Of a stretch of 64,000 nucleotides of DNA, positions 12,573-57,968 are shown piece after piece. Under the pieces are notes generated by a model. It had not been told where the DNA came from and did no database searches. It saw nothing but the letters and a program-made list of their open reading frames with translations. The position numbers were made by a program, and so were the translations under genes. The stretch covers positions 26,383 to 90,382 of the forward strand of contig JBBDRM010000100.1 of NCBI GenBank assembly GCA_040905475.1, written 5' to 3'. The number at the start of each line of letters is the position of its first letter. Within the stretch, counting starts at the first letter, position 1. Source of the stretch: Actinomycetota bacterium (GTDB taxonomy: Bacteria; Actinomycetota; AC-67).

Positions 12573-12621
12573 CGAGCCGCGAGACTACCGCACGGATCGC
12601 ACGGGGCGCACCGAGGCAGGG

Positions 12622-29351: not shown

Positions 29352-29439
29352 AGCCCCGGTCGTCGGGGGCTTCGCCGGGCTTGCCCCCGGTCGCCGCGTC
29401 GGGAGAGAATCCGTCGCAAGACGAGTCGGGAGGCAGGGA

Positions 29440-41735: not shown

Positions 41736-43085
41736 ATGACCTGGTGCGCGAGATGCGATGTGCTCACGACGGTATCCGTGGGCGACCCGTGTCCGGCGTG
41801 TGGCGTCCCAACTCTCGACGCGGCACCGGTGAGAGGCAAGGCACGTTCGCCGATCCAGGTGCTCGAGCTTGAGGAGGCACCGATCGTTCATATCCCGGAC
41901 GCTGGTCTCGACACCACCGACCCATCCGTCGAGCCGAGCAAGCCGCAGAGCCGACGACGCGCCGTGTTGTCACGTCTCCGCGCTCATTCGCGGCTCATCG
42001 CGATCGCGCTCACGACGGCGCTCGTCGGCGCGGTGTACGTAGGGACGCGGCCAGATCCGGAGGCGGGATCCAGGGCGCAACCGACGGGGACGCCGACCGC
42101 GTCTCCGGCTCCCCAAGGACCCGTTCTTAGAGAGCCGGCCAACGGCTGGGCGGTGTTCGCGCTCGAGCACGGCTTCACGCTGCTCGATCTGCCGACCGGA
42201 GCGGAGCACAGCATCGAGGTGGAGGGCTCGATCCTCGAATTCGCGCCATCACCCAGGGGCGGGCGCATCGCATACACCGACGAAGTTCGTGTTCTCTATG
42301 TCACGACGGCCCAAGGCCGAGCTCCCGTCACCATAGCCACGGAGGTCAGCAGCTTCTCGTGGACCCCAGACGGCGACGCACTCGTCGTCGGTCGTTCGCA
42401 GACGGACGGACAGGGCTCGGAGCGCATGCGAGTCGAGCTGATCAGCTTGGCCGACCGCACGCCGCTCCTCCTCATGGAGAGTCAGTGGTTCGCGGGTCCG
42501 GTGATCTCCTCCGGCTTCACACATCTCGTTACGCTCTACGAGGGTGACACGCCGAGCGTTTTCGACCTTCAGCCGGGCAGCAAGCCGCGGCTGATCCGTA
42601 AGAACGCGGCGCTGCTCGACGCCTCGACGGACGGACGTCATGCCCTGCTCGCGACCAACAACGGCCAGCGTCTGATCATGGTCGACTTGCAGACCAAGAA
42701 GGCCCGCCGGATCGGGCCCGACATCTTCCTCACGGCCGCTGCGAAGTTCTCCCCCGATGGTCGGACGGCCGCCGTCACCGGCACGTCACATTTCACGCTC
42801 GAGGAGAGCCACTGCGAAGCCCCGGAGGCGACGTGCGACCGCTATCCCTACCCGACGGATCAGACGCTGTGGTCGCTGGACGTGAAGACGCTCGAGCTGA
42901 GCTCCATCCGGTCATGGCCGAGTCCCGAGTTCGCGAGCGCGCCGGTCTGGGGTCCGAACGGATGGGTGTTCATGGCCAACTCCCAGGGGCCGGTCGCCAT
43001 CTCCATGACCGACCCATCCAAGACCCCGGTCGAATTCACCACCACGTACGGCGCCGCAGAAACCGCGCCCAAGTACCTGGCTTGA
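41736..43085 (+). CDS. Bitopic protein: cytoplasmic Zn-ribbon + TM helix + extracytoplasmic TolB/PD40-like beta-propeller
   Basis: The sequence MTWCARCDV...CPACG is followed by the TM helix LIAIALTTALVGAVYVG. PD40-like repeats follow (WTPDGDALVV, FSPDGRTAAVTG). ATG follows GGGAGG. Confidence 0.6.
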   Translation: MTWCARCDVLTTVSVGDPCPACGVPTLDAAPVRGKARSPIQVLELEEAPIVHIPDAGLDTTDPSVEPSKPQSRRRAVLSRLRAHSRLIAIALTTALVGAVYVGTRPDPEAGSRAQPTGTPTASPAPQGPVLREPANGWAVFALEHGFTLLDLPTGAEHSIEVEGSILEFAPSPRGGRIAYTDEVRVLYVTTAQGRAPVTIATEVSSFSWTPDGDALVVGRSQTDGQGSERMRVELISLADRTPLLLMESQWFAGPVISSGFTHLVTLYEGDTPSVFDLQPGSKPRLIRKNAALLDASTDGRHALLATNNGQRLIMVDLQTKKARRIGPDIFLTAAAKFSPDGRTAAVTGTSHFTLEESHCEAPEATCDRYPYPTDQTLWSLDVKTLELSSIRSWPSPEFASAPVWGPNGWVFMANSQGPVAISMTDPSKTPVEFTTTYGAAETAPKYLA

Positions 43086-43164
43086 GCCCCCCGCCCGGGG
43101 AAAGGCGGGCCGGCTCAACGGGCCGGCCCGCCGCACGTTCGCGGGCGTCGACCCTTGGAAGGCG

Positions 43165-43190
43165 GGAGCCCGGCCTATTCGGCCGGGCTC
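43165..43190. terminator. Bidirectional terminator hairpin between convergent surface-protein genes
   Basis: GGAGCCCGGCC-tatt-CGGCCGGGCTCC has a perfect 11-bp stem. Confidence 0.5.
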
Positions 43191-43212
43191 CGCGGCTTGC
43201 CAGGGCTTCGCG

Positions 43213-44919
43213 CTACGGCTTCGTGCGGCGCAGCGACCTGATGCTCACACCCGCGAGGCTGAGGAGGCTCAGGGCGCCCACGTAGAAGGCTCCGCTGGTC
43301 CCAACACCCGTCTCGGGGAGGAACTTGGCCTTGAGCACGACCAGCACCTTGAGCGGAGGCGAGTTGCCCACGACCGTGCTGCCGTCGCCCTCACCGTCGC
43401 AGTTGCCGAGCACCGCGGCGGCGGTCGCGATGTCTTCGATGATGCCACCGCCGCCCTGCGCGCGAAGGGTCACGGACACGGTCTTGCTTCCGCCCTTCGC
43501 GATCGGACCGATGTTGTCCCATACCACGGTCCCCGAATCGAGATTCGATCCCGCGGGAACCTGGTTGGCTGTCGGGCTCGTGCTGAGCACCTGGAACTTC
43601 GCGTCACCTTCGGTCGTGATCTTGTCGACGACCTTGACGACCGTCATGTCGCAGCCGAAGGGGTTGTCGACCTTGATCGACGTGGTGAACGCCTGGCCGA
43701 CCGTGACGCCGTTCAGGTTCGAGGTCTTCGAGACCGGAATGCCGCAGTCGATGCCGCCCACCGGAACCTGCGCTGCGACCTCCATGTGACCGAAGCGGAG
43801 GTCCAGTGCCTCACCGTCGAGCACCTTGACGCGGACGACGTCCAGCGCCGCCGAGGCGCTGGTGCCGTTCGCCGCGACCGAAGGCTCGGTCGTGTCGTCG
43901 CCGCCGATCGCCCGCGGGTTCTCGCCGATGACGAGCTCGAGGACGCCGGGGATGATGATCGGGAGACCCTCGTCACCGAGGATGTCCTGGAACGTGATGA
44001 TGTCGGTGATCTCCCCGTCCTGGATGATGCGCAGGATCGGCGTCGAGGGGCTTGCCTCGCCGGGACCGAAGTGGATGTGCGAGCTGCCGGGGATGCCCCC
44101 GGCCGTCGCGCGCAGGACCCACTCACCGAGGAAATCGAGCGTCAGTGCGCCGTCCGCCAATGTCACCGGAGCGATCGTCATCCGTACCTCGGACGAGAGA
44201 CCGAACCTCAGACCGAGCGGGTTGCCGGCCGCGTTCTGCTGAACGTCGAGGAACGTGTGCGAGAACGACTGAGCGACCCGCCGGTCGGCCGGAAGCTCGG
44301 AGTTAACCGAGATCAGCGGCGCGTCCAGGTTGCCGTCGCCCTCGGGATCGGTCGTGCCCGTCTCGACAAGCTCGACGTTGGCCGCGTAGCCGAGGCCGTT
44401 GCTGAGGTCCTTGCCGAGCACGCAGGTGCTGGAGTTGCTCCAGTTCGCTTCCGCTGCGCCGCGGAGCAGCGAGGCGTACGCGATCGGCGAAGCGGGGAGG
44501 CCGAGAAGCTCGTCCATCGTCGAAGTGTTCGGCGGAGCAGCCGCTTCGGCGATCTGGATCTGGAGATCGTTCGCCGTGTCGTCGTCGACACCAAGCCCGA
44601 GCTCGAGGCCCGAGCCGCGGCCGGCCGTCTTCTTGGTCGGCTGCGCCGCGATCACGGTCCGGTCGAGGCCGGCTTCGTTCTTGATGGCGCTCGTCAACCC
44701 CTTCGAGTCGACGGCCGCGCCGGTCCAAGCCTCTTCCACGTTGGCGACGTTCACGCCGGTAGCGTGAAGCGCGTCTGCGTGGAGCACTTGACCGGTTGCG
44801 TAGCCGGAGAAATCCGCCTCATCGAACGGGACTGCCGATGCCGGGATCGCCACAACCGCGATAGCGAGTAGGGCGACCAGCAGGGCGGCTACCAACCGTC
44901 CGCTCCTGTGTACTGCCAT
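43213..44919 (-). CDS. Secreted cell-wall-anchored surface protein with a sortase sorting signal (LPETG + hydrophobic segment + RSLRRTKP) and a DUF11-like C-terminal repeat domain
   Basis: The signal peptide is MAVHRSGRLVAALLVALLAIAVVAIPASA. LPETG lies 35 aa from the C-terminus. A DUF11-like block (NGVTVGQAFTTSIKVDNPFG...GSKTVSVTLRA) is present. ATG at 44917-44919 follows GGGAGG. Confidence 0.7.
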   Translation of the reverse strand: MAVHRSGRLVAALLVALLAIAVVAIPASAVPFDEADFSGYATGQVLHADALHATGVNVANVEEAWTGAAVDSKGLTSAIKNEAGLDRTVIAAQPTKKTAGRGSGLELGLGVDDDTANDLQIQIAEAAAPPNTSTMDELLGLPASPIAYASLLRGAAEANWSNSSTCVLGKDLSNGLGYAANVELVETGTTDPEGDGNLDAPLISVNSELPADRRVAQSFSHTFLDVQQNAAGNPLGLRFGLSSEVRMTIAPVTLADGALTLDFLGEWVLRATAGGIPGSSHIHFGPGEASPSTPILRIIQDGEITDIITFQDILGDEGLPIIIPGVLELVIGENPRAIGGDDTTEPSVAANGTSASAALDVVRVKVLDGEALDLRFGHMEVAAQVPVGGIDCGIPVSKTSNLNGVTVGQAFTTSIKVDNPFGCDMTVVKVVDKITTEGDAKFQVLSTSPTANQVPAGSNLDSGTVVWDNIGPIAKGGSKTVSVTLRAQGGGGIIEDIATAAAVLGNCDGEGDGSTVVGNSPPLKVLVVLKAKFLPETGVGTSGAFYVGALSLLSLAGVSIRSLRRTKP

Positions 44920-45226
44920 CTGCTCCAACCTCCCTCGACGAACCAATCCGACCTTTGTTTCTACCCTCGCCGGAACCACACTAACTTCACTCAAGTTCCC
45001 AAAGCAGAGCCTTTCGCCGAAACCGCTCAGGACCCTGCTACTTACCTAATGCGAATGCATGAGGAAACTCTTACGCGACTGGTTTCCCCTCTTAACGACG
45101 TGACTCCTCTCAGTGGCCGTCAGGTTACCCGCTCTGGTTGCTTTTGAACCGGAACGTAACCATTGCGCGAACACGGTAGGTGATGGTAGGACTTCGCAGA
45201 TTTGGCCTGGGACGAAAAACCCGTCC

Positions 45227-46420
45227 TTATCGGCGCAGCGACCCGAACGGGACGTCCTTGTCGGGTGCGGAATCACGCGGCAGACCAAGCACTCGCTCTC
45301 CGATGAGGTTGCGCTGGATCTCGTCGGTCCCCCCGCCCAGCCGGAATGCCGGCCATCCCAGAAACGCCCGTTGGACTCCTTCTTCTCCCATAACGCTTCC
45401 ATCGGGCCCAAGGACACGCATACCCACCATCGCGGTCTGTCCAACGAGGTTCGCAAGGACGAGTTTCGCGATCGACCCTTCAGCGTCGGGGATCTGCCCG
45501 CGGCCGAGCTTCGAGAGGATCCGGGCGTTCAGCAGTGCAAGTATCCGACCCTGCGTGTAGACCCGGGCGAGCGCGTCCCGTGTTAGCGGATCGATCCCGT
45601 CCGGCGCCCGCTCCCGCGCCAGCTGCACGAGACGTTCGAAGGGGAACGTGTAGCCGCCGCTCGCACTGCCGATCGACATGCGTTCGTGCATGAGGGTAGT
45701 GATGGCGATCCGCCAGCCGTCGCCCGGCTCGCCCAGCCGGTCGGCGTGCGGCACGCGGACGTCGTTGAGGAAGACCTCGTTGAAGTGCGAGTTGCCGTCC
45801 ATCTGCTTGAGGGGGCGAACCTCGACGCCGGGCGACGACATGTCGACGATCAGATAGACGAGGCCCTTGTGCTTCGGCACGTCGAAGTCGTGCCGCGCAA
45901 GGAGCAGGCCGTAGTGCGCCTCGTGAGCGAGCGAGGACCAAACCTTTTGACCGTTGACGACCCACTCGTCGCCGTCACGGACCGCTCGTGTCGACAGCGA
46001 CGCGAGATCCGAGCCGGCACCGGGTTCGGAGAAGAGCTGGCACCAGATCTCGTCGCCGTTGAGCAGCGGCGGAAGGTACCGCGCTTTCTGCTCGGGCGAG
46101 CCGTGCGCGATGACGGTAGGCCCGGCCATCCCGAAGCCGACCACGTTGAACGGGATCGTCGCACCGATGCGAGCCTTCTCCTCGCCCCAGATGGTGGATT
46201 CGAGTGGGCCGAAGCCGCGCCCCCCGAACTCCGCCGGCCACGAGGGCGCACCCCATCCGGCTTGCGCAAGGCGGTGCTGCCATGCGCGCGACCGTGCCGG
46301 GTTCGGCACGCCGGTGTCGGGATGCTCGGCGTTGAACGCCGGCCAATTCTCCTCCAGCCAGGCGCGCGCCTCGGCGCGTACCGCTGCGAGATGCTCGGGC
46401 TCGTCGAAGCGCATCATCAC
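45227..46420 (-). CDS. Acyl-CoA dehydrogenase
   Basis: The ACAD N/M/C domains are present (LFSEPGAGSDLASLSTRAV...NGQKVW). It is the last gene of the long operon. Confidence 0.85.
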   Translation of the reverse strand: MMMRFDEPEHLAAVRAEARAWLEENWPAFNAEHPDTGVPNPARSRAWQHRLAQAGWGAPSWPAEFGGRGFGPLESTIWGEEKARIGATIPFNVVGFGMAGPTVIAHGSPEQKARYLPPLLNGDEIWCQLFSEPGAGSDLASLSTRAVRDGDEWVVNGQKVWSSLAHEAHYGLLLARHDFDVPKHKGLVYLIVDMSSPGVEVRPLKQMDGNSHFNEVFLNDVRVPHADRLGEPGDGWRIAITTLMHERMSIGSASGGYTFPFERLVQLARERAPDGIDPLTRDALARVYTQGRILALLNARILSKLGRGQIPDAEGSIAKLVLANLVGQTAMVGMRVLGPDGSVMGEEGVQRAFLGWPAFRLGGGTDEIQRNLIGERVLGLPRDSAPDKDVPFGSLRR

Positions 46421-47577
46421 TCCCTCGATAGAACGATCCCGCTCGTCGGCACGCCGACGCCGGCGGTGACGAGCACGTTGGACACGTCGGGCACTTGATT
46501 GGCCGCGGCGCCGCGGATCTGCCGAACGCCCTCGGCGACGCCGTTCATGCCGTGGATGTATCCCTCCCCCAGCTGGCCGCCGTTGGTGTTGATCGGAAGC
46601 CTGCCGCCCGGGCCGATGCCCGTGTCACGCACGAAGTCCTTCGACTCACCCGGGCCGCAGAAGCCGAACTCCTCGAGCTGCAAGAGCACGAACGGCGTGA
46701 AGGGGTCGTAGATGACCGCTGTCTGGATGTCGGCCGGCGTGAGGCCCGACTGCCGCCAGAGCTGCCGCGAGACGGCGGCTACCTCGGGGAGGTGGGTCAG
46801 GTCGTCGCGGTAATAGGACGTCATCTCCTCCTGGCCCGCGCCGGAGCCCTGCGCGGCTGCTCGGATGATCGCCGGGGTCTGGCGGAGGTCTTTCGCGCGC
46901 TCGGCGCTCGTGACGACCACGGCCACGCCGCCGTCGGATTCCTGACAGCAGTCGAGCAGGCGGAGCGGCTCGACGATCCAGCGGCTGGACTGATGATCCT
47001 CCAAGGTGATCGGCTTCCCGTGGAACCAGGCGTCCGGGTTCGTTGCCGCGAACGCGCGATGCGCGACGGCGACGCGCCCGAGGTCCTCGCTCGTCGCGCC
47101 GTAGGTGTGCATGTATCGCTGCGCGAACATCGCGACCCAGCTTGCCGGCGTCGTGAGGCCGAACGGCGTGTACCAGCTGTAGTGGATGAGCTCGGCCGTC
47201 GGCTTGTCGTGGATGCTCAAACCGAATCGGCGCCAGGAGCGGCCGTTCAGTGCCCGGTACGCGATCACGACTTCGGCCGAGCCGGTCGCGACGGCCATCG
47301 CCGCCTGGTGGATAACGGCGCATGCTGCTCCGCCGCCGTAATGGATCCGGCTGTAGAAGCTCAGGTCGCCGCACCCGAGGTTCCGGGCGAGCTCGATCTC
47401 TTCGTTCGAGTCCATCGTGAACGTGCAGAACCCGTCGACGTCGGCGGGGCTGAGCCCGGCGTCGGCGAGCGCGGCGGAGGCCGCCTCGACGGCGAGGCGC
47501 ATCTCGGTGCGGCCGGACTCCTTGGAGAACTCGGTCTGGCCGATCCCGGCGATCGCGGCGCGTCCGGCGAGGCTCAT
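46417..47577 (-). CDS. SCP-x/Ltp-type thiolase-like protein
   Basis: The sequence MSLAGRAAIAGIGQTEF is present on a thiolase fold. The track ORF is over-extended. The start overlaps the MaoC stop (ATGA). Confidence 0.8.
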   Translation of the reverse strand: MSLAGRAAIAGIGQTEFSKESGRTEMRLAVEAASAALADAGLSPADVDGFCTFTMDSNEEIELARNLGCGDLSFYSRIHYGGGAACAVIHQAAMAVATGSAEVVIAYRALNGRSWRRFGLSIHDKPTAELIHYSWYTPFGLTTPASWVAMFAQRYMHTYGATSEDLGRVAVAHRAFAATNPDAWFHGKPITLEDHQSSRWIVEPLRLLDCCQESDGGVAVVVTSAERAKDLRQTPAIIRAAAQGSGAGQEEMTSYYRDDLTHLPEVAAVSRQLWRQSGLTPADIQTAVIYDPFTPFVLLQLEEFGFCGPGESKDFVRDTGIGPGGRLPINTNGGQLGEGYIHGMNGVAEGVRQIRGAAANQVPDVSNVLVTAGVGVPTSGIVLSRE

Positions 47578-47996
47578 GCGCGGTCCTTGCCCGCCAGCGT
47601 GAGCCGGACGGTTCCGGAGACATGCTCCCCGAGGCCGGTCGTGCCGCGGATCGAGACCTCGACGTCGTCCCCTTCGACGAGCGTGACATGGCCGGCGAGG
47701 CGCATCACGTCGCCGGGGTAGTTCGGGGAGCCGAGCCGGATGGCGACCTTGCGCAGGATGGCCTCGGGTCCGGCCCAGTCCGTGACGAAGCGTCCGACCA
47801 ATCCGTTGGTCGTCAGGATGTTCATGAAGATGTCGCCGGCCCCGCGCTGCCGCGCCAGCGCGGCGTCGTGGTGGACGTCCTGGAAGTCTCGCGACGCGAG
47901 CGCGCCCGCCACGATGAGGGTCGCGGTGATCGGGATCTCGCTCGCGGGAAGCTCGTCGCCGACCGTCACGTCGCTCGGGCTGAGCGTGCGCATCAC
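47574..47996 (-). CDS. MaoC-like (R)-hydratase hotdog protein (ChsH1-like)
   Basis: The 140-aa hotdog protein carries DFQDVHHDAALARQ. Confidence 0.8.
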   Translation of the reverse strand: MMRTLSPSDVTVGDELPASEIPITATLIVAGALASRDFQDVHHDAALARQRGAGDIFMNILTTNGLVGRFVTDWAGPEAILRKVAIRLGSPNYPGDVMRLAGHVTLVEGDDVEVSIRGTTGLGEHVSGTVRLTLAGKDRA

Positions 47997-49117
47997 CGCT
48001 CCCCTCCCGAAGCCATCCCGGCACCGAGCCGCGCGAGCTGCCGGCCGGCGCCGCCGAGCATCAGCTCGACATGTTTCGCGCCGAGCGTGTAGCGATGCAA
48101 CGGGTACTCCATGTCGACGCCGATCCCGCCGTGAAGGTGCTGCGCGGCGGCGAGCACGCGGTGTCCGCCGTCGGCCGCCCAGAACTTGGCGATCGCGACC
48201 TCATCCGTCGCCGGCAGCCCCTCGTCGAGGCGCCACGCGGCTTGCCACATCGTCCACCGCATCGCCTCCACGTCGATGTAGGCGTCGGCGGCCCGCTGCT
48301 GGACCGCTTGGAACTTCGCGAGCGGCCGCCCGAACTGCTCGCGGCCGGACAGGTACTCGGCCGTCATGTGCAGCGCGCGCTCGGCCATGCCGACCTGAAG
48401 CGCGCAGAGGCCGGTGAGCGCCGCGTCGTGGAGCCACCCGAGAGCGGCGGGGTCGGTTCCCGGCTCGACCAGGACGTCGTCCTCGGGCACCGAGGCGCCG
48501 TCGAGGGTGAGCATCGACAGGATCTCGCCGCTGGTTGCGGACTGCCGCTCGAGGGTCAGTCCCCCCGAGCGCGGGTCGAGCAGGAAGATCCCGACGCCGC
48601 CGTTCGACCGCGCGGGGACGAGGACCCGCTCGGCGAGATGTGCGGCGGGCACAGCGATCTTCGCGCCTTCGAGTCGCCACGCGTCGCCCTCCCAGGTCGC
48701 GGTCGTCGCCGGCCGTAGCGGGTCATCTGAGTCGGGCTCGGCGAGTGCGGCGGTTAGGACGGCGTCCCCGGAGACAACACGCGGCAGCAGCGAGGATCGA
48801 AGCGACGGCGACCCGTAGCGGGTGATCGTTCGCGCGCCGAGGACGAGGGCGGGCCACAGCGGCACGGACGCCGCCGCCGCGCCGGCTTGCTCGAGCAGAA
48901 GGCAGACCTCGGTGAGGCCGCCGCCGATCCCGCCGTGGTCTTCGGAGATGCCGACGCCGAGGAGGTTCGCGCGGGCGAGCTCGGCCCAAAGTGATCGGTC
49001 GAAGCGATCGGGATCGGCCTCGACCTGCTTCAGCCGGTCGGTCGTCGTGTGCGCGCCGAGGATCTGACGCGCGAGGTCCCGCAGCGCCTCCTGGTCCTCG
49101 CTGAAACCCAGATCCAC
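47993..49117 (-). CDS. Acyl-CoA dehydrogenase
   Basis: The ACAD family protein lacks the usual FAD-binding Arg pattern and may be a heteromeric-type subunit. Confidence 0.8.
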   Translation of the reverse strand: MDLGFSEDQEALRDLARQILGAHTTTDRLKQVEADPDRFDRSLWAELARANLLGVGISEDHGGIGGGLTEVCLLLEQAGAAAASVPLWPALVLGARTITRYGSPSLRSSLLPRVVSGDAVLTAALAEPDSDDPLRPATTATWEGDAWRLEGAKIAVPAAHLAERVLVPARSNGGVGIFLLDPRSGGLTLERQSATSGEILSMLTLDGASVPEDDVLVEPGTDPAALGWLHDAALTGLCALQVGMAERALHMTAEYLSGREQFGRPLAKFQAVQQRAADAYIDVEAMRWTMWQAAWRLDEGLPATDEVAIAKFWAADGGHRVLAAAQHLHGGIGVDMEYPLHRYTLGAKHVELMLGGAGRQLARLGAGMASGGER

Positions 49118-49120
49118 GGC

Positions 49121-50080
49121 TCAGCTCCTTTGCTTGAAGACCGGCAACGTGACCGCGTCGTCGATGGTGAGGAAGTCCAGCTCGACCGGCATGCCGATGC
49201 GCACCTCGCCGGGCTCTACCCCGACGATGCTCGTGACGATCCGCGTCCCTTCCTCCAGGGCCACGAGCGCGACGACGTAGGGCATCTCGAACCCCGGCAC
49301 CGGCGGATGGTGCACCACGACGTACGAGAAGACCTCTCCTCGGCCGCTCGCCCGGACCGCATCCCATTCGAACGAGCCGCAGGCGCCGCACATCGTCCGC
49401 GGCGGATGCCGGAGGGTATTGCACGCGGAGCAGCGCTGGATCAGGAGCTCCCGTCGCGCCGTGCCGTCCCAGAAGAACCGGGTGTCCTGGTTCATCGCCG
49501 GCCGCGGGCGCCGCCCGGTTCGCGGCGGGACGGCCGCGGCCTCCGGCCGGAACTTCAGGTAGCGCTGCATCATGCGCCCGACGACTTCGCCGGTCGCGTC
49601 GCAGCAGGTCGTCAGCGTCGTGAAGAAGTGGCCGGGCCCAAGACCGGTGCGCTTCTCCTCCGAGACCGACTCGATGATCGTGGTCGACGTGATGAGGTCG
49701 CCCGGCCGCAGGTAGCGGAGGTACTCCTGCTCGCAGTTCGTCGCCACGATCGAGGTGAATCCGGCCTCGTCCAGAGCCGCGATCAGCTCCGCCTGCGCGT
49801 TGTCGGGCGACGGCGGAGGCTTGAGACCTTTCATCGTCCAAACCTGCAGCATCGTCGGAGGCGCGACGATGCTGCCGTGGACCGACCATTTCGCGAACGT
49901 GGGATCGGTGTAGGAAGGATTGGCGTCACCGAGCGCCTCGCACCAATGGCGGATCATCGACTCGTTCACCGGGTCCGGCGAGGTGAACTGCGGCCCGGCC
50001 CGCCGCCCGACGAAGGACCGCAGCCGCTCGACGAGATCCTCGCGCTCGGACTCGGTGCGGCGGTCCGCGGTCTTGCTCAC
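49121..50080 (-). CDS. MaoC-like hotdog fused to a DUF35 OB-fold/Zn-ribbon domain (ChsH2-like)
   Basis: The N-terminal hotdog is followed by the C-terminal Zn ribbon CSACNTLRHPPRTMCGACGS and an OB fold. Confidence 0.7.
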   Translation of the reverse strand: MSKTADRRTESEREDLVERLRSFVGRRAGPQFTSPDPVNESMIRHWCEALGDANPSYTDPTFAKWSVHGSIVAPPTMLQVWTMKGLKPPPSPDNAQAELIAALDEAGFTSIVATNCEQEYLRYLRPGDLITSTTIIESVSEEKRTGLGPGHFFTTLTTCCDATGEVVGRMMQRYLKFRPEAAAVPPRTGRRPRPAMNQDTRFFWDGTARRELLIQRCSACNTLRHPPRTMCGACGSFEWDAVRASGRGEVFSYVVVHHPPVPGFEMPYVVALVALEEGTRIVTSIVGVEPGEVRIGMPVELDFLTIDDAVTLPVFKQRS

Positions 50081-51258
50081 CGGCCGCTCCTCGGCATCCC
50101 GAGCCCGGCGGTCGCGATGATGTCGCGCTGGACCTCGTTGACGCCGCCGCCGAACGTAACGACGTATGCCCAGCGGTACATGATCTCGACGCGGCCGCCC
50201 AGCACCGCGCCCGGAGAACCGTGACGGATCTCGCCCGCTTCGCCCAGGACCTCCATGAGGCTGCGATAGACCTCGACGAACAGCTCTGTGCCGTAGACCT
50301 TGACGACCGACGCGTCGGCCGCGTTAAGGATCCCTTTCGTCAGCTCCCAGGCGAGACGCCAGTTCAGCAGCTTCAAGGCCTCGAGCCGAGCGCGCGTTCG
50401 GGCGAGCGTCATCTGCACCCAGGGGCGGTCGATGATGCGGCCGCCGTCGGACGCGGTGGTCTGGGCCGCCCACGCGAGCACGTCGTCGAGGAGCTGCTCG
50501 GCCTTGCCCGAGCATGCCAGCGCGACGCGCTCGTGGTTGAGCTGCGTGGTGATGAGCCCCCACCCCTCGTTCTCGCCGCCGACGATCGCGTCGGCCGTGG
50601 CGCGCACGTCCTCGAAATAGACGGCGTTCGTCCGCCCGTAGTCGATGGTCTCGATCGGGGTCATCTTCACTCCGTCGTGTGACGTCGGGACGATGAAGAT
50701 CGTGAGGCCCTTGTGCTTCGGAGCCTCTGTGTCGGTGCGCGCGGCGAGCCATATGTAGTCCGAGTCGTGCGCGCCCGTCGTGAAGATCTTCTGGCCGTTG
50801 ATCACGTAGCCGGTGCCGTCCTTGACCGCGCGGGTACGGAGCGACGCAAGGTCGGTTCCCGCGCCCGGCTCCGTGTAGCCGATCGCGAAATGCATCTCAC
50901 CGCGAAGGATCGGCCGGAGGAAGCGCTGCTTCTGCTCCTCGGTGCCGTACTGGATCAGCGTGGGGCCGACGGTGTTTAGGGTTACGAACGGGAACGGCAT
51001 GTCGGCGCGGCGGCACTCGTCGATGAAGAGCTGGTGCTCGATGAACGAGCGACCTTGCCCTCCGTACTCCTTCGGCCATCCGAGGCCGAGCCAGCCGTCC
51101 TCCCCCATCTGCCGGACGACGCGGCGGTAGGCGGGCCCCATCTGCTCGCCGGCGCGCGGGCCCAGCTCCGCGCGAAGCTCCGGCGTCAGGACCTTCGCGA
51201 AGTACGCACGGAGCTCGTCGCGCAGCGCGATCTGCTCGTCGGAATAGGCGACGCGCAC
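50077..51258 (-). CDS. Acyl-CoA dehydrogenase
   Basis: The sequence IGYTEPGAGTDLASLRTRAV...NGQKIFTT is present. Confidence 0.85.
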   Translation of the reverse strand: MRVAYSDEQIALRDELRAYFAKVLTPELRAELGPRAGEQMGPAYRRVVRQMGEDGWLGLGWPKEYGGQGRSFIEHQLFIDECRRADMPFPFVTLNTVGPTLIQYGTEEQKQRFLRPILRGEMHFAIGYTEPGAGTDLASLRTRAVKDGTGYVINGQKIFTTGAHDSDYIWLAARTDTEAPKHKGLTIFIVPTSHDGVKMTPIETIDYGRTNAVYFEDVRATADAIVGGENEGWGLITTQLNHERVALACSGKAEQLLDDVLAWAAQTTASDGGRIIDRPWVQMTLARTRARLEALKLLNWRLAWELTKGILNAADASVVKVYGTELFVEVYRSLMEVLGEAGEIRHGSPGAVLGGRVEIMYRWAYVVTFGGGVNEVQRDIIATAGLGMPRSGR

Positions 51259-51264
51259 GTCCGG

Positions 51265-52044
51265 CTACCCAAATCGGGGCACGTGTCCGCCCCACCCCAC
51301 GAAGGACGTCGCGCCGCCGTCGACGACGAACTCGGCGCCGGTGCAGTAAGAGCTTTCGTCGGACGCGAGGAACAAGACCATGTTCACGATGTCGTCGGGG
51401 ACCCCTGCGCGACGGAGCGGGATACCCGACTCGAACAGCTTGTCGACGTCGATGTCTTGCAGGCCCTGCGCGCGGGTCATCGGCGTATCGATGAAGCCCG
51501 GGTGGACGGAATTGACGCGGATCTTGTGCCGGCCGAGCTCCACCGCGGCGGACTTGCTCATCCCGCGGACGGCGAACTTGCTGGCCGTGTATGCGGTGAG
51601 ACGCGGAAGGCCGCGCAATCCCTCGACCGAGGAGATGTTGATGATCGAGCCGCCGCCGGCGCGCTTCATGGCCGGCACGGCCGCCTTCATGCCGAGGAAC
51701 ACGCCGACCTGGTTCACGTTGATGATCTGCATGTAGTCCTCGAGGGTCGAGTCCTCGAGCTTGCCGAACTTGAGGATGCCGGCGTTGTTGAGCAGGACGT
51801 CGAGGCGGCCGAACGACTGCTCGGCGTCCTTGACGGCCGAAACCCAGTCGTCCTCCTTCGTAACGTCGAGATGGGTGTAGATCGCGGCGTTGCCCAGCTC
51901 CTGGGCGAGCGCCTTGCCCTCGTCGTCGAGGATGTCCCCGAGCGCGACCCGGGCACCCTCGGCGACGAACCGGCGAGCAGCGGTGGCGCCCTGGCCACGC
52001 GAGCCACCGGAGATCAGCGCGACCTTGCCGTCGAGCCGTCCCAC
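51265..52044 (-). CDS. SDR-family oxidoreductase (3-hydroxyacyl-CoA / hydroxysteroid dehydrogenase-like)
   Basis: The sequence GKVALISGGSRGQG ... NNAG ... YTASK is present. Confidence 0.85.
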   Translation of the reverse strand: MGRLDGKVALISGGSRGQGATAARRFVAEGARVALGDILDDEGKALAQELGNAAIYTHLDVTKEDDWVSAVKDAEQSFGRLDVLLNNAGILKFGKLEDSTLEDYMQIINVNQVGVFLGMKAAVPAMKRAGGGSIINISSVEGLRGLPRLTAYTASKFAVRGMSKSAAVELGRHKIRVNSVHPGFIDTPMTRAQGLQDIDVDKLFESGIPLRRAGVPDDIVNMVLFLASDESSYCTGAEFVVDGGATSFVGWGGHVPRFG

Positions 52045-52055
52045 AGCTTGTCCTT

Positions 52056-53162
52056 TCAGATCCCGAGCCGGGTTGCCAGCAGCTCCCGATGGTAGACGGG
52101 GTCGCCGAACAGCAGTTCGGAGGACTTCGCACGCTTGAAGTACAGATGCGCGTCGTGCTCCCAGGTGAATCCGATGCCGCCGTGGACCTGGATGTTCTCC
52201 GAGGCGGCGAAGAAGTAGGCGTCCGAGGCGACCGCCTTGGCGAGCGGCGCGCTCAGACGGAGCTCGTCGTCATCCTTGGCCGCGACCCACATCGCGTAGT
52301 AGGCGGCGGTCTTCGCCGACTCGATCTGGAGGAGCATGTCGGCGCACTTGTGCTTGATCGCCTGGAATTGGCCGATGGGGCGACCGAACTGAACCCGGTT
52401 CTTCGCGTAGTCGACGGCCATGTCGAGGCAGCGCTGCGCGCCGCCGACGATCTCGGCCGCGATGCAGACGGAGATGTGGTCGAGCAGCTTGTCGAGCGAC
52501 GCGGGGATGTCCCCAAGCGCGGTTCCGCGCACGTTCTGGAGCTCCAGGCTGGCCTGCTTCCGGGTCTGGTCGAGTGTCGGCAGCGCCTCGCGGGTCAGCC
52601 CGCCCGCGTCGCCGGGGACGACGAACAGGCCGACGCCCTCGGGCGCCCTGGCGGCGACGATCAGCAGGGAAGCGATCCCGCCGTCGACCACGAAGCGTTT
52701 CGTGCCGTTCAGGATCCAGTCGGAGCCTTCTTTGCGCGCGGTCGAGGAGACGCCGGTCGCGTCCCAACGGCCGTTGGGCTCGGCGAACGCGAGCGCGGCG
52801 ATCGTCTCGCCGGACGCGATACCGGGCAGCAACTCCTTGCGTTGCGCGTCGGAGCCGAGATCGAGGATCGCGTTGCCGGCCAGGCACACGCTCGACAGGA
52901 ACGGCGCGGCGAGCAGCGACCGGCCCATCTCCTCGAGCACGATCCCGAGCTCGACGAACGAGAAGCCCTGTCCCCCGTACTCCTCGGGGATGTGGAGGCC
53001 CTGCAGGCCGAGCTCGGCGGCCATCTGCTTCCAGACAGACTCGTCGTAACCGCCGGGCGTCTCCATGAGGCGGCGGACTTCGGTCGTCGGCGACTTGTCC
53101 TCGAGGAAGCGCCGCATCGTTCGGCGAAGCTCTTCCTGCTCGTCGGTGAAGGTGAAATTCAT
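52056..53162 (-). CDS. Acyl-CoA dehydrogenase
   Basis: The start MNFTFTDEQEELRR is at 53160-53162. The ACAD fold is present. Confidence 0.85.
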   Translation of the reverse strand: MNFTFTDEQEELRRTMRRFLEDKSPTTEVRRLMETPGGYDESVWKQMAAELGLQGLHIPEEYGGQGFSFVELGIVLEEMGRSLLAAPFLSSVCLAGNAILDLGSDAQRKELLPGIASGETIAALAFAEPNGRWDATGVSSTARKEGSDWILNGTKRFVVDGGIASLLIVAARAPEGVGLFVVPGDAGGLTREALPTLDQTRKQASLELQNVRGTALGDIPASLDKLLDHISVCIAAEIVGGAQRCLDMAVDYAKNRVQFGRPIGQFQAIKHKCADMLLQIESAKTAAYYAMWVAAKDDDELRLSAPLAKAVASDAYFFAASENIQVHGGIGFTWEHDAHLYFKRAKSSELLFGDPVYHRELLATRLGI

Positions 53163-53166
53163 ATGG

Positions 53167-54321
53167 TTACGGCCTTTCGCTCGAGACCATCCACATCGCG
53201 AAGAACTGCGAGCCACCACCGTACGCGTGACCGAGGGCGAGGCGCGCGCCGTCCACCTGATGCTCGCCGGCCTGGCCGCGGACCTGCATCGCAGCTTCGG
53301 CGAAGCGGAGCATGCCGGACGCGCCGATCGGGTTCGACGAGAGCACGCCGCCGGACGGGTTGATCGGCAGGTCGCCGTCCAGAGCGGTCACGCCCTTGTC
53401 GGTGAGCTGCCACCCGGTCCCTTCATCGGCGAAGCCGAGGTTCTCGAGCCACATCGGTTCGAACCACGAGAACGGAACGTAGACCTCGGCGAGGTCGATC
53501 TGGCCGCGAGGGTCGGTGATCCCGGCCTGCGCGTAGACGTCGGCGGCGCAATCCCGGCCGGCGCGCGGGTTGACCTCGTCTCGCCCGGCCATCCCGAGCG
53601 GCTCGCTGCGCACGGCCGTCCCGCGCACCCAGGCCGCCGGGTTCTTGCCGGTGGCCGCGTACCGCTCGCTGGTGAGCACCATCGCGCATGCGCCGTCCGA
53701 GGACGGGCAGCACTCGAGGAAGCGGATCGGATCCCATAGCATCGGCGACTCGGCGACCTTCTCGAACGAGATGTCGGGGATCCGGAGGTGCGCGTAGGGG
53801 TTGCGCATGCCGTTCACGCGGTCCTTGACGGCGACCTCGATCCCGATGTGGTCGGGGGCCTTCGCACGGCGGATGTACTCGCGGATGTGCGGCGCGAAGT
53901 AGCCGCCGGCTCCGGCGACGAGCGTCGGCTGGAACGGGATCTTCGGCGCGAGGGCCCACATCGCGTTGGACTCGGACTGCTTCTCGAACGCGACCGTGAG
54001 GACCCGCTCGTAGAGACCCGACGCGACGTGGTGCGCGGCAACGACCGCGGTCGACCCGCCGACGCTGCCGGCCGTGTGGACGCGGAGCAGCGGCTTTCCG
54101 ACGGCGCCGAGCGCGTCGGCCAGGTAGAGCTCGGGCATCATGACGCCCTCGAACATGTCCGGCGCCTTTCCGACGACGACCGCGTCGATGTCGGACCAGC
54201 CCATGTTGGCGTCGTCGAGCGCGCGGGTGGCAGCCTCGCGCACGAGCCCGGCGATCGAAAGGTCCTCGCGCGCGGTGTCGTGCTTCGTCTGGCCGATCCC
54301 GACGATCGCGGTGCGCTCCAT
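53167..54321 (-). CDS. Thiolase-like protein (SCP-x/Ltp type; active-site Cys position appears occupied by Ser/Thr)
   Basis: The sequence MERTAIVGIGQTKHD...RVHTAGSVGGSTAVV is present. The track ORF is over-extended. Confidence 0.75.
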   Translation of the reverse strand: MERTAIVGIGQTKHDTAREDLSIAGLVREAATRALDDANMGWSDIDAVVVGKAPDMFEGVMMPELYLADALGAVGKPLLRVHTAGSVGGSTAVVAAHHVASGLYERVLTVAFEKQSESNAMWALAPKIPFQPTLVAGAGGYFAPHIREYIRRAKAPDHIGIEVAVKDRVNGMRNPYAHLRIPDISFEKVAESPMLWDPIRFLECCPSSDGACAMVLTSERYAATGKNPAAWVRGTAVRSEPLGMAGRDEVNPRAGRDCAADVYAQAGITDPRGQIDLAEVYVPFSWFEPMWLENLGFADEGTGWQLTDKGVTALDGDLPINPSGGVLSSNPIGASGMLRFAEAAMQVRGQAGEHQVDGARLALGHAYGGGSQFFAMWMVSSERP

Positions 54322-54323
54322 CG

Positions 54324-55385
54324 CTACTCGCCCTCCAGGACGCAGATCAGATTTTGCTGCAGGCACGGGCCGGAGGTCGCGTGAGCGAGCGCGCGGTTCG
54401 CTTCGCCGTTCGAGATCCGCGTCGCCGCCTCGCCGATCCGGATCAGCCCGGCGGCCATGATCGGGTTCGCCGCGAGCGCGCCGCCGGAGGGGTTGATCTT
54501 GGTTCCGTTCGGCTTCGCGAGCCCGAGCGCGTCGCGCAGGATCAGCTCTTGGTGGGTGAACGGCGCGTAGAGCTCGGCGACGTCGATCTCTCCTTCGAGC
54601 GCGCCGGCCACCTCCGCGGCCTTGCGGGTCGAGGGGGAGCGGGTCAGGTCGCGCACGCCCGGATAATGCGGCTCGATGCGGTGGTCGATGCCGCGGATCC
54701 ACGCGGGTCGATTCGAGACCTTCCGCGCCAGGTCCCCCGCGGCGAGCACGACCGCCGCGGCTCCGTCTGAGATCGGCGCGCAGTCGTGTTTGCGGAGCGG
54801 CGACACGATGTAGGGATCGGCCAGGATCTGCTCGGCGTCGAAGTCGCCGGTCACTTGCGCGTTCGGGTTGGCCTTCGCGTCGCGGCGGCTACGCGCGGCC
54901 ACCTCGGCCATCTCTCGCTCGGTGTGGTCGGTCGACTCGAGCAGCGCGCGGGCCTGCAGCGCGGCGAGCGAGATCGCGTCGGGCCAGAGCGGCGCGAGGT
55001 AGTACGGGTCGAGCTGTCGGGTCAACACGTCGCGCACCTGCCCCGGGGAGGACTTTCCGAAGCCGTAGACGAGCGCGGAGTCGATCACGCCTTCTTGCAA
55101 TAGCACCCACGCCTCGTACAGCGCCCACGCGCCGTCGGCCTCCACGTGTGACTCGCGGACGGGCGGCCAGGCGCCGATCGCCTCGAGGCCGTACACGAAC
55201 GCGAACGGCTGACCGGCGAGGTAGTCGGCCGAGCCCGAGCACGTGAAGCCGATCTCCTTCGATGGGATCCCCGAGTCGGCGACGGCTTTCTGGATCACCG
55301 GCATCAAGATCTCGACCTCGTTCTGGACGGCGTTGTTCCGCACGCTCGTCGATTGCGCGAAGGACACCACGGCGACGTCACGCAT
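54324..55385 (-). CDS. Thiolase-like protein
   Basis: The sequence MRDVAVVSFAQ...FTCSGSADYLAG is present on a thiolase fold. Confidence 0.75.
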   Translation of the reverse strand: MRDVAVVSFAQSTSVRNNAVQNEVEILMPVIQKAVADSGIPSKEIGFTCSGSADYLAGQPFAFVYGLEAIGAWPPVRESHVEADGAWALYEAWVLLQEGVIDSALVYGFGKSSPGQVRDVLTRQLDPYYLAPLWPDAISLAALQARALLESTDHTEREMAEVAARSRRDAKANPNAQVTGDFDAEQILADPYIVSPLRKHDCAPISDGAAAVVLAAGDLARKVSNRPAWIRGIDHRIEPHYPGVRDLTRSPSTRKAAEVAGALEGEIDVAELYAPFTHQELILRDALGLAKPNGTKINPSGGALAANPIMAAGLIRIGEAATRISNGEANRALAHATSGPCLQQNLICVLEGE

Positions 55386-55881
55386 CGGCGCGCATCCTCT
55401 TCAGCACGTCGTCGATCGGCGCGTCGGGCTCTCCGGTCGGGCGCCAGTAGCGGATCGAGTCCCCCGTCGGTCCCCGTTCGGCGTCGGGCACCCAGACCGC
55501 CTCGACGCGCATCCCCATGCGGACGTCGGCCGCCTGGACCTCCTGCAGCAAGGCCGTCAGCGGGATGTCGGCGCCGTCGAGCAGGATGGCGGCGGTCGTG
55601 TAGGGGATCTCGACGGTCGAGCCGGCGAACGGCACGTTGACGACGCAGAAGGTCGTGACGGTCCCGACGTGCGGGAGCTCCACGACTTCGGTCATCGGGA
55701 TGCCGTCGCGCGGGCACGCCCCGCTGCCGCCGCCCACGTACACCTTGTGGCAGCGCTCGCAGCGCTCGCCGAGGATGCGGCCCTCCGCGAGGCCGTTCAA
55801 GAATCGCGACCGCGCGACGCCGGGGGTGTAGTTGTACTCGAGCCGGATCGGCGTCTGGATGATCTCGACCGGATCGGACAT
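55378..55881 (-). CDS. DUF35 OB-fold/Zn-ribbon protein (thiolase partner)
   Basis: The sequence MSDPVEIIQTPIRLEYNYTPG...CERCHKVYVGGGSGAC is present. The start overlaps the stop of the next gene (ATGA). Confidence 0.7.
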   Translation of the reverse strand: MSDPVEIIQTPIRLEYNYTPGVARSRFLNGLAEGRILGERCERCHKVYVGGGSGACPRDGIPMTEVVELPHVGTVTTFCVVNVPFAGSTVEIPYTTAAILLDGADIPLTALLQEVQAADVRMGMRVEAVWVPDAERGPTGDSIRYWRPTGEPDAPIDDVLKRMRADA

Positions 55882-56336
55882 CACGCCTCCGGCTCGAAGC
55901 ATTCGATGTCGAGGATGTGGCCGGTGCGCTCCTCGCGCCAGCGCGGTTTCACGCGCATCCCGGTCGTCATCTTCGTCTCGTCGCCGGCGTCCACCGCGTG
56001 CAACAGCGCCGTGTCGGCGCCGTCGAGGCGGATCAGCGCCCACGCGAACGCCTTCTGCAACGGATTGTTGGGGCGCGGCTCGGCGATCCAGGCCCACGTC
56101 GTCACGACGCCGGACGGGCCGACCGCCACGAACTCACTGAGCTCGGCGGCGGTCTGCGGGTCGTACTCGACCGGCGGGACGATCACGCGGCCGTCGCTCC
56201 CGCGGATGCCCTCGAGCTTCTTGTCGCGCAGGCCGGTCAGGAACCGACCGATCACCCGGCCGACGCTTCGCTTGTACGGATACTCGAGGACGTGGAGCGC
56301 CGTGAGGACCTTGGTGTCGCCCGCCCCCGCTCTCAT
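55881..56336 (-). CDS. DUF35-like OB-fold protein (no Zn ribbon)
   Basis: The 151-aa protein resembles the C-terminal OB part of DUF35 proteins. Confidence 0.55.
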   Translation of the reverse strand: MRAGAGDTKVLTALHVLEYPYKRSVGRVIGRFLTGLRDKKLEGIRGSDGRVIVPPVEYDPQTAAELSEFVAVGPSGVVTTWAWIAEPRPNNPLQKAFAWALIRLDGADTALLHAVDAGDETKMTTGMRVKPRWREERTGHILDIECFEPEA

Positions 56337-56339
56337 GGC

Positions 56340-57893
56340 TCAGATCGCCCGTTCGCGTCCGGCCCAGTACGGGTCGCGCAGCTTGCGCTTGTAGAGCTTG
56401 CCGTTGGGATCGCGCGGAATCTCGGCGATGAAGTCGATCGTGCGCGGGATCTTGTACTTCGCGAGACGGTCGGAGAGGAACGCGGTCAGCTCTTGCTCGA
56501 GCGCCGGGCCCGGCTCGATGCCGGCCGACGGCTCGACGACGGCCTTGACCTCCTCGCCCCAGTCGTCGTGCGGGATGCCGAACACGGCGGCATCGCCGAC
56601 CTTGGGGTGCTGGTGCAGCGTTCCCTCGATCTCGGCGGGATAGATGTTGACGCCGCCCGAGATGATCATGTCGATCTTGCGGTCCATCAGGAACAGGTAG
56701 CCGTCCTCGTCGAGGTAGCCGATGTCCCCGACGGTGAAGAAGCCCTCATTCCAGGTCTTGTCGGTCTTCGCCTTGTCCTTGTGGTACTCGAAGGTGTAGT
56801 CGCCCATCTTCATCCACACGGTGCCTGGCGTCCCCGCCGGGACGGGCTTGTTGTCGTCGTCGAGCACCGAGACCTGCGAGATCGGCCACGGCTTCCCGAC
56901 CGTGCCGGGCTTCTTCAGCCACTCCTCCGGCGTGACGAGCGTGCCGCCGCCCTCGGTGGCGGCGTAGTACTCGTAGATCACCGGGCCCCACCAGTCGAGC
57001 ATCCTGCGCTTGGTCTCGATCGGGCACGGCGCGGCCGAGTGGATCATGTAGCGCAGCGAGCCGAGATCGCGGGTGTCCTTCGCGTCGTTCGGGAGCGCGA
57101 GCAGACGGTGGAACTGCGTGGGAACCATGTGCGAGCTCGTCACCTTGTAACGCTCGATGCGCTCGAGCGTGCCCTCGGGGGTCCACTTGTCCATCAGCAC
57201 GACGTTGTGACCCATGTGCAGGGAGCTCGACGCGAAACGCAGCACGGCCGTGTGGTACAGCGGCGAGACGACGAGGTGGGTGTTGTTGTCTTTCGGCTGG
57301 ATGCCGAACAGCATCAGGAACAAGCCGTTCAGCTCGGCGTTGGTGTCGGGGTCGAAAGGGCTCCCCGGACGGCGAACGCCCTTTGGGCTGCCGGTCGTTC
57401 CGGCGGTGTAGTTCATGATGTCGCCGGTCGCCCGGTCCTCGGGCATGGCGTCCGGCCGGCCGGCCTTCACGTCGGCGTAAGGACGAAAGCCTTCGATGTC
57501 TCCGGCGACCGCGAAGCGCGCGTCCGTCGGGAAGCTCGCCTCCTCGGCCGCGGCGTGCGCGGCGTCGGCGTATCGCGCTTCGGAGATGAAGGCTTTGGCC
57601 TCGGAGTCCTCGAGGATGTACGCGATCTCCGGCGCCGTGAGGTGGTAGTTGATCGGCACGAGGTACCAGCCCGCCTGCATGACGGCGAGGTAGGCCTCGA
57701 CCGCGGCGATCGAGTTCGGGAGCAGGATCGCGACGGTGTCGCCCTTGTTCAGGCCGAGCGCACGCAGCCCGTGAACGAGGCGGTTCGTCTCGGCGAGCAG
57801 CTCGCCGGCCGTGACCTCGACCCCCTCGGGATCGACGAGCGCCAAGCGCGAAGGATCGGCCTGCGCGAGGTTCCAGAACCCGAGTTCGCCCAC
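56340..57893 (-). CDS. Acyl-CoA synthetase (AMP-binding, FadD family)
   Basis: The sequences TAGTTGSPKGV, GDIGYLDEDGYLFLMDRKIDMI and YPAEIE are present. The start is either GTG at 57893 (preferred, because it places the operator upstream) or GTG at 57953. Confidence 0.8.
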   Translation of the reverse strand: MGELGFWNLAQADPSRLALVDPEGVEVTAGELLAETNRLVHGLRALGLNKGDTVAILLPNSIAAVEAYLAVMQAGWYLVPINYHLTAPEIAYILEDSEAKAFISEARYADAAHAAAEEASFPTDARFAVAGDIEGFRPYADVKAGRPDAMPEDRATGDIMNYTAGTTGSPKGVRRPGSPFDPDTNAELNGLFLMLFGIQPKDNNTHLVVSPLYHTAVLRFASSSLHMGHNVVLMDKWTPEGTLERIERYKVTSSHMVPTQFHRLLALPNDAKDTRDLGSLRYMIHSAAPCPIETKRRMLDWWGPVIYEYYAATEGGGTLVTPEEWLKKPGTVGKPWPISQVSVLDDDNKPVPAGTPGTVWMKMGDYTFEYHKDKAKTDKTWNEGFFTVGDIGYLDEDGYLFLMDRKIDMIISGGVNIYPAEIEGTLHQHPKVGDAAVFGIPHDDWGEEVKAVVEPSAGIEPGPALEQELTAFLSDRLAKYKIPRTIDFIAEIPRDPNGKLYKRKLRDPYWAGRERAI

Positions 57894-57902
57894 GTCGGCG
57901 AA

Positions 57903-57919
57903 ATTAGAACACGTTCTCG
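57903..57919 (-). promoter_or_regulatory. KstR-type TetR operator-like site (sense of fadD: GAGAACGTGTTCTAATT)
   Basis: It matches the TnnAACnnGTTnnA consensus and is identical to the 17-mer at 60468-60484. It lies about 10 nt upstream of the preferred fadD start. Confidence 0.5.
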
Positions 57920-57968
57920 TTATTGGGCGCAACCTGCCCGGCAGCCAGGGCACGAGCCCCGCGCCACG

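Follow-up and report, generated by a model that had tools for sequence, protein, structure and literature searches.

A CLIPPER-containing surface protein with a predicted sortase-sorting signal and an uncharacterised head domain from an Actinomycetota genome

The closest described counterparts of the protein considered here are the substrates of the actinobacterial class E sortases, as exemplified by the chaplins ChpA-C and the sortases SrtE1 and SrtE2 of Streptomyces coelicolor: in these substrates a signal peptide is combined with a pentapeptide that ends in TG and, after it, a hydrophobic segment and basic tail, their genes are unlinked from the sortase gene, and class E sortases have been described as specific for LAXTG (PMC5148588). 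Related in layout are the fibrillar adhesins, in which a signal peptide and a sortase anchor are combined with a stalk of tandemly repeated immunoglobulin (Ig)-like domains and a distal head containing a recognised adhesive domain (PMC9210967, PMC12617251). One domain of such stalks, DUF11, has been renamed CLIPPER; it is CnaA-like and holds a K715–N806 isopeptide bond that is catalysed by D748 (PMC12617251). The gene that is the subject of this report lies on the minus strand of a 64-kb stretch of DNA (hereafter the window) from the metagenome-assembled genome (MAG) of an Actinomycetota bacterium, and its 568-amino-acid (aa) product is identical to the NCBI MAG protein WEB06_11800, annotated as a ‘hypothetical protein’ of that bacterium. 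It is proposed, with a probability of roughly 0.8, that this is a secreted protein that is covalently attached by a sortase to the peptidoglycan of a monoderm actinobacterium. In these terms it is a sortase-anchored, CLIPPER-containing surface protein, a known type, whose head domain is uncharacterised.

From its N-terminus the protein consists of a Sec signal peptide, an all-beta domain of ~360 aa (the head), one DUF11/CLIPPER Ig-like domain, the pentapeptide LPETG, a hydrophobic helix and a basic tail. An AlphaFold2 model of the protein has a predicted local distance difference test score (pLDDT) of 88.4 and a predicted template modelling score (pTM) of 0.83. The parts map to the window as follows:

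43213 to 44919, minus strand: surface-protein coding sequence, stop codon included, 568 aa.
44833 to 44919, minus strand: Sec signal peptide MAVHRSGRLVAALLVALLAIAVVAIPASA, aa 1–29 (rule-based prediction; AlphaFold2 helix at 6–22; family conservation).
43750 to 44832, minus strand: N-terminal all-beta domain, aa 30–390 (AlphaFold2 pLDDT 89.1 and pTM 0.90 when modelled alone).
43336 to 43749, minus strand: single DUF11/CLIPPER (CnaA-like Ig) domain, aa 391–528 (PF01345, Foldseek and alignment; PMC12617251).
43306 to 43320, minus strand: sortase recognition pentapeptide LPETG, aa 534–538 (sequence and family alignment).
43240 to 43290, minus strand: hydrophobic membrane-retention segment AFYVGALSLLSLAGVSI, aa 544–560 (Kyte–Doolittle; AlphaFold2 helix at 543–565).
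43216 to 43239, minus strand: basic tail RSLRRTKP, aa 561–568 (sequence).

A preliminary description of the window, made from the DNA alone, had recognised both a signal peptide and a textbook cell-wall sorting signal in this protein, and both were borne out. The C-terminus reads KAKF-LPETG-VGTSG-AFYVGALSLLSLAGVSI-RSLRRTKP: an LPXTG-type pentapeptide ~30 residues from the end is followed by a 17-residue hydrophobic segment (15-residue Kyte–Doolittle maximum 1.87), which coincides with a helix in the AlphaFold2 model, and by a positively charged tail. When the 570 six-frame open reading frames (ORFs) of the window were screened by a rule that required the motif, a hydrophobic stretch after it and two or more basic residues after that, the surface protein alone was returned. 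At the other end, the rule-based Sec signal peptide is made up of a basic n-region (MAVHRSGR), 17 hydrophobic residues and the AxA site PASA/VPF, with a 19-residue Kyte–Doolittle maximum of 2.94, and is predicted by rule to be cleaved by signal peptidase I at ASA/VPF. The signal peptide is conserved among homologues, as is the mature N-terminus, VPF(D/N)EADFSGYATG.

The sorting signal is a property of the family. A first homology search yielded 309 relatives with 40–92% identity, nearly all of them 560–620 aa in length and with the same architecture; C-termini were counted in 120 that were retrieved, and residue conservation was taken from an alignment of 64 sequences. The arrangement of L(P/A)xTG, hydrophobic helix and Arg-rich tail was found in ~115 of the 120, the pentapeptides being LPRTG (40), LPPTG (22), LARTG (9), LPETG (7), LPKTG (6), LAATG (6) and others, and two homologues in which the motif is missing are truncated sequences. 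In the alignment T537 is kept in 63 and G538 in all 64 sequences, and position 535 is occupied by P in 45 and by A in 17, while position X of the pentapeptide and the linker that precedes it vary freely. Conserved T and G alongside a variable X and linker is the pattern expected for a recognition site under selection.

Further evidence comes from the neighbourhoods of homologues, which were studied in 71 loci (numbered with the prefix L) from GTDB representative genomes. Six of these loci have a sortase gene at or near the homologue:

L020:5662-6306: class E-like sortase gene adjoining the homologue.
L046:11875-12501: class E-like sortase gene adjoining the homologue.
L052:11841-12530: class E-like sortase gene adjoining the homologue.
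L060:11844-12485: class E-like sortase gene adjoining the homologue.
L040:2934-3899: class F sortase gene directly downstream of the homologue.
L017:1721-2635: class E-like sortase gene 3 kb from the homologue.

The first four genes encode proteins of 208–230 aa, lie immediately 3′ of the homologue on the same strand, and share a transmembrane anchor and the motifs IAGHRT, LTLTTCHP and RLVxRA. The three that were scanned (L020, L046 and L052) match PF04203 with E-values of 2e-30 to 4e-26, and their best NCBIfam model is class E, at 126–136 bits and thus below its cutoff of 160; the L060 sortase was recognised through the shared motif and a sortase hidden Markov model (HMM) built in the analysis. 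The sortase in L040 is class F (175 bits against a cutoff of 166). That a sortase gene stands directly downstream of a homologue in five loci supports sortase dependence of the family. LPVTG, LPRTG and LPITG are the pentapeptides of the homologues that stand beside class E-like sortases. The mixed use of P and A in the family suggests that the class E-like sortases of these relatives may accept both LPxTG and LAxTG, and the loci provide evidence that such sortases in these lineages pair with LPxTG as well as with LAxTG signals. In L046 the sortase gene is followed by a third gene (12498–13607), which encodes a protein with a signal peptide, a region rich in Pro and Ala and a transmembrane segment at the C-terminus.

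As the preliminary description had also stated, no sortase gene is visible in the window. None was found in Pfam scans of ~50 genes, and an HMM built from the sortases of relatives and phmmer searches with class E-like, class F and Staphylococcus aureus SrtA queries gave a best E-value of 0.14 against all 570 ORFs; the synteny-based annotation, which covers 33–55 kb of the window, likewise contains none. A scan of the window for TLxTC returned a single match, TLTTC at 49618, which lies within a ChsH2-like hydratase and was rejected as a sortase. The best reading is that the cognate sortase would be encoded outside the window, most likely as a class E-like enzyme of the kind found beside homologues. 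A housekeeping sortase encoded away from its substrate is the normal arrangement in Gram-positive bacteria. As first stated, the finding of a sortase substrate without a sortase nearby therefore matters little, since an unlinked housekeeping sortase is the usual situation.

Set against the class E substrates of S. coelicolor (PMC5148588), the window protein has the same signal peptide, TG-ending pentapeptide, hydrophobic segment and basic tail; its family uses both P and A at position P3, and its gene is unlinked from a sortase gene. It differs in that its own pentapeptide is LPETG and not the LAXTG described for class E, in that the adjacent sortases of its relatives score below the NCBI class E cutoff, and in that its cargo is unrelated to the chaplins.

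Just ahead of the sorting signal lies what had been described as a DUF11-like repeat. The DUF11 match is real, if sub-threshold in the window protein itself, whereas the term repeat does not hold: PF01345 is matched by 56 of 64 full-length homologues (best E-value 8.7e-13), and a single domain is present. By Foldseek the domain resembles the CLIPPER structure 9IFR (probability 1.00, TMt 0.53, E-value 1.8e-4), in keeping with a CnaA-like Ig fold; a phmmer search of the region against the PDB gave only a chance Fc-receptor match. Local pLDDT in the AlphaFold2 model is 94–98 over most of the domain and ~55 in its last residues. As in 9IFR (PMC12617251), the window protein has a CnaA-like beta-sandwich just before the sorting signal, and a Lys and a catalytic Asp with spacing like that of K715 and D748 are invariant in its family: K398 and the putative catalytic residue D432 are each kept in all 64 aligned sequences, at a spacing of +34 compared with +33 in 9IFR. 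With D496 they form a candidate triad, so that a K398–D496 isopeptide bond catalysed by D432 is plausible. At position 496, the acceptor, 55 of the sequences have D, eight have N and one has E, in contrast to the Asn of the solved domain, and the bond is accordingly regarded as putative. The conserved cysteines are a further likeness to CLIPPER domains, being common in actinobacterial examples. Exactly four Cys residues occur in 62 of 64 members, three of these conserved residues sit in the CLIPPER domain, and C166, C392 and C423 are invariant; this conservation suggests that the protein may contain two disulfides. Unlike the tandem repeats of described stalks, the domain is present in one copy.

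A CnaA-like isopeptide-type domain together with an LPxTG signal is also typical of Gram-positive pilins (PMC12617251), and some homologues have a dedicated adjacent sortase, as would be expected if the protein were a pilin-type subunit polymerised by a class C pilus sortase and not a monomeric wall-anchored protein. Yet class E and class F, not class C, are the best-scoring classes for those adjacent sortases, no multi-pilin gene cluster surrounds the gene or its close relatives, and no YPKN-like pilin motif is evident on direct reading of the sequence, making a pilin very improbable. In overall layout the protein resembles a fibrillar adhesin, with its signal peptide, distal head, Ig-like stalk domain and sortase anchor (PMC9210967, PMC12617251). 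Fibrillar adhesins differ from the window protein, which is short (568 aa) and has a single stalk domain and a head in which no recognised adhesive domain was found, residues 30–390 being free of Pfam matches in all 64 members. The organisms that carry the family are free-living and uncultured, and no host is implied.

Several observations weigh against sortase anchoring or against details of the proposed architecture. No sortase has been seen from this organism, the search having covered the 64-kb window. The window protein matches neither PF00746 (Gram_pos_anchor) nor the NCBIfam LPXTG anchor models at E ≤ 1, and PF00746 is matched weakly by two of 64 relatives; this is treated as a limit of the models, which help to detect the signal but do not define it. 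Classical substrates usually have a Pro/Gly-rich linker that spans the wall, and such a linker is almost wholly lacking ahead of LPETG. The PF01345 score of the window protein itself, 23.5 bits over aa 396–500, falls just under the gathering cutoff of 24.6, the isopeptide acceptor is Asp and not Asn, and a binding (adhesin-like) role for the head is a guess. The missing sortase, the silent anchor models and the very short linker between folded domain and LPETG could be taken together as signs of a tail-anchored envelope protein, in which LPETG is fortuitous and never cleaved. Such a pseudo-signal is improbable, for it would leave unexplained why L, P/A, T and G are kept in ~115 of 120 homologues at 40–92% identity while neighbouring residues vary, and why sortase genes stand directly downstream of homologues in five loci. 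A tripartite signal conserved in more than 100 homologues, sortase adjacency in those five loci and a window lacking any such gene together support the core of the preliminary description: the protein is read as a sortase substrate that bears a DUF11-like domain, with the gene for its cognate sortase lying elsewhere.

Taking the protein as a sortase substrate, it would be exported through Sec and cut by signal peptidase I after A29, and the precursor would stay in the membrane by means of its hydrophobic C-terminal helix and RSLRRTKP tail. A sortase bound to the membrane, its gene lying outside the window, would then cut between T537 and G538 and transfer the protein to lipid II or the cell-wall cross-bridge. 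Because the last CLIPPER strand ends only ~6 residues before LPETG, the single CLIPPER domain must itself cross the wall or lie within it; we infer that it would act as a wall-proximal stalk, probably stabilised by disulfides and possibly by the K398–D496 isopeptide bond, presenting the 360-residue all-beta head.

The head is built of long antiparallel strands in the AlphaFold2 model and resembles no described domain in the collections that were searched. No Pfam family was found in the head of any of the 64 members and no NCBIfam match in that of the window protein; the family profile HMM matched no PDB sequence, and Foldseek against the PDB gave no meaningful match (best E-value 9e-3, TM-score < 0.2). 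Nine head residues are invariant (E82, C166, W267, T353, D360, R375, G377, H378 and E380), a hint that they may mark a specific site. The invariant pairs C166/Q311 and H378/E380 were considered as the residues of a thioester or ester-bond domain, but this was rejected, as no thioester domain (TED) or related match was found in Pfam or the PDB and Q384 is not conserved. A scan of 1.84 billion representative proteins found the head in 329 clusters at 50% identity, 262 of them at E ≤ 1e-10, and in nearly all of these it is N-terminal in a protein of ~600 aa. All family members come from Actinomycetota MAGs, with the addition of Acidiferrimicrobium sp. IK. Three or four paralogues were observed on different contigs of SMAG_U11003 (L019, L041, L044 and L045), BP_132 (L040, L056 and L059) and MAG083 (L043, L065 and L067), which shows that certain lineages have undergone an expansion of the family. 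What emerges is a well-defined, unannotated family of ~330 clusters, nearly all from uncultured Actinomycetota, with a confidently modelled head that lacks Pfam, PDB-sequence and Foldseek-PDB matches.

Clustering of the neighbours of the family across loci revealed a second recurrent partner, a caspase-like peptidase (Peptidase_C14), whose gene directly follows the homologue, in the same orientation, in 13 of the 64 copies that have sufficient flanking sequence, as well as in L021 and L070 (the linked loci are L009, L011, L013, L017, L018, L021, L023, L025, L029, L033, L038, L042, L045, L047 and L070). The peptidases share an N-terminal transmembrane or signal segment, a conserved His/Cys dyad, a tail rich in Pro and, at the end, a CxnC motif. 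A homologue built in the same way is encoded in the window:

18236 to 19480, plus strand: membrane-anchored C14 peptidase (Pfam E-value 1.3e-11).

Over 251 aa it is 30% identical to the neighbour in L047. Such pairing raises the idea that an extracytoplasmic C14 peptidase has the surface protein as its dedicated substrate or partner, sortase anchoring being one step of a two-enzyme maturation. In its favour are the directly downstream C14 genes, the membrane-anchored homologue in the window and the invariant R375-x-G-H-M-E motif at the junction of the head and CLIPPER domains; nevertheless it is doubtful, since in the window 25 kb separates the two genes, which lack the shared orientation of an operon, since a single Acidimicrobiales group accounts for many of the linked loci and makes the counts non-independent, and since the idea draws on gene adjacency and not on biochemistry, a literature search having found no paper that links C14 peptidases with LPXTG proteins. 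A more specific and unlikely version is that the head is an undescribed fold of an Actinomycetota-restricted family coupled to the membrane-anchored C14 peptidase, which would process or activate the surface protein, perhaps at R375-x-GHME, in addition to its anchoring by sortase. If true, C14 peptidase and sortase would form a two-enzyme surface-maturation module not described before. To our knowledge, bacterial caspase homologues are still largely without known substrates, and the recurrent pairing could point to one. The link is possibly meaningful and is offered here as a lead that stands apart from the proposed anchoring by sortase.

The gene had also been placed in a lower-GC pocket, with horizontal acquisition in mind, and neither point held. 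Its GC content is 0.670 (window genes 0.678 ± 0.023), its GC content at third codon positions (GC3) is 0.868 (0.854 ± 0.034) and its synonymous-codon distance is 0.110 (0.111 ± 0.022), all typical of the window. It occupies the same slot in L002, L003, L006 and L010 (58–91% protein identity), between an acyl-CoA dehydrogenase/thiolase/ChsH2-type cluster and genes for HU, an alpha/beta hydrolase, a luciferase-like oxidoreductase and CofC. A low-GC islet acquired horizontally would have explained the missing sortase, and the 307-nt upstream spacer is indeed AT-richer (GC 0.541). Only this spacer deviates, however; the GC, GC3 and codon usage of the gene lie within 0.5 standard deviations of the window genes, the flanking genes are the same in the four relatives, with no break in synteny, and no mobile-element genes are nearby, leaving such an origin extremely improbable. 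On typical composition and shared flanking genes horizontal acquisition is rejected, and the gene is best described, from these comparisons, as a core gene that its lineage has inherited vertically, and not as an island. The remainder of the window is housekeeping in character, with genes for S16, L19, TrmD, two LepB proteins, RNase HII, Ffh, FtsY, SMC, RecG and RNase III.

The DNA on either side of the gene contains the following features:

44929 to 44936, minus strand: Shine–Dalgarno sequence GAGGGAGG, 9 nt 5′ of the ATG at 44919 (read from the sequence).
44920 to 45226, minus strand: AT-richer upstream intergenic region, 307 nt (GC 0.541, compared with 0.678 for the window).
43165 to 43191: GC hairpin with an 11-bp stem and a 5-nt loop, 21 nt past the surface-protein stop codon.
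43104 to 43132: second GC hairpin with a 13-bp stem and a 3-nt loop, 18 nt past the stop codon of the convergent gene.
41736 to 43085, plus strand: convergent neighbour gene, encoding a zinc-ribbon-like N-terminus, one transmembrane segment LIAIALTTALVGAVYVG and a beta-propeller-like ectodomain.

Translation is placed at the ATG at 44919 (minus strand) in preference to an in-frame TTG upstream at 44994, which would give a protein of 593 aa (25 additional residues), because GAGGGAGG precedes the ATG and homologue alignments begin at the Met that it encodes; the Shine–Dalgarno sequence is kept in L006 and L010. Two signal peptidase I (Peptidase_S26) genes, at 2149–3060 and 3664–4458 on the minus strand, flank the RNase HII gene within a housekeeping cluster of the window that also includes L19, TrmD, S16, Ffh and FtsY, and would be the machinery that processes the signal peptide of the surface protein.

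The AT-richer region upstream was noted correctly at the outset. The spacer is 90% identical to that of L006 and 74% identical to that of L010, about the level of the coding sequence, with near-identical blocks in relatives that include GCGTAAGAGTTTCCTC and AGCAGGGTCC(T)TGAGCG, and it presumably comprises a promoter and 5′ leader. As an RNA element the leader showed no excess of predicted structure (minimum free energy z-score -0.14) and matched no Rfam family; a scan of metagenome contigs with a 14-nt pattern, which was too short, gave chance matches only.

Downstream, the strong bidirectional terminator of the preliminary description resolves into two separate hairpins, one for each stop codon, within the 127-nt convergent spacer: the strong GC hairpins are real, but neither has a canonical U-tract, and a consensus terminator scan called neither. 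A hairpin of different sequence follows the gene at the equivalent place in L006, L010 and L003, that in L003 with a U-tract, and this positional conservation supports a terminator role for the hairpin at 43165–43191, which is a probable terminator without a canonical U-tract. The convergent neighbour had been called another surface protein. It is convergent and has an extracytoplasmic, beta-propeller-like domain, yet it is a membrane protein in which the 570-ORF rule scan found no sorting signal; it is not a sortase substrate, and the label is loose. Its cytoplasmic N-terminus is zinc-ribbon-like (CxxC...CxxC), its ectodomain has only weak Pfam or TolB-like matches, and L003 carries an orthologue that L002 lacks.

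Two further regions of the window were noted. On the minus strand, a long same-strand cluster at 45227–57953 encodes acyl-CoA dehydrogenases, thiolase-like proteins, MaoC/ChsH2-type hydratases, an SDR protein and an acyl-CoA ligase, and a P450 gene follows it at 62539–63999; it resembles clusters for the degradation of steroid or branched-lipid side chains, and the part nearest the surface-protein gene, at ~45–55 kb, is syntenic in L002 and L003. At 27358–29609, also on the minus strand, long ORFs overlap in different frames, namely 27529–29319 (phosphomethylpyrimidine kinase domain) and 28329–29609 (AIR-synthase-related domains); gene calls there are ambiguous, and the overlap may reflect a true gene overlap, a fusion or a frameshift.

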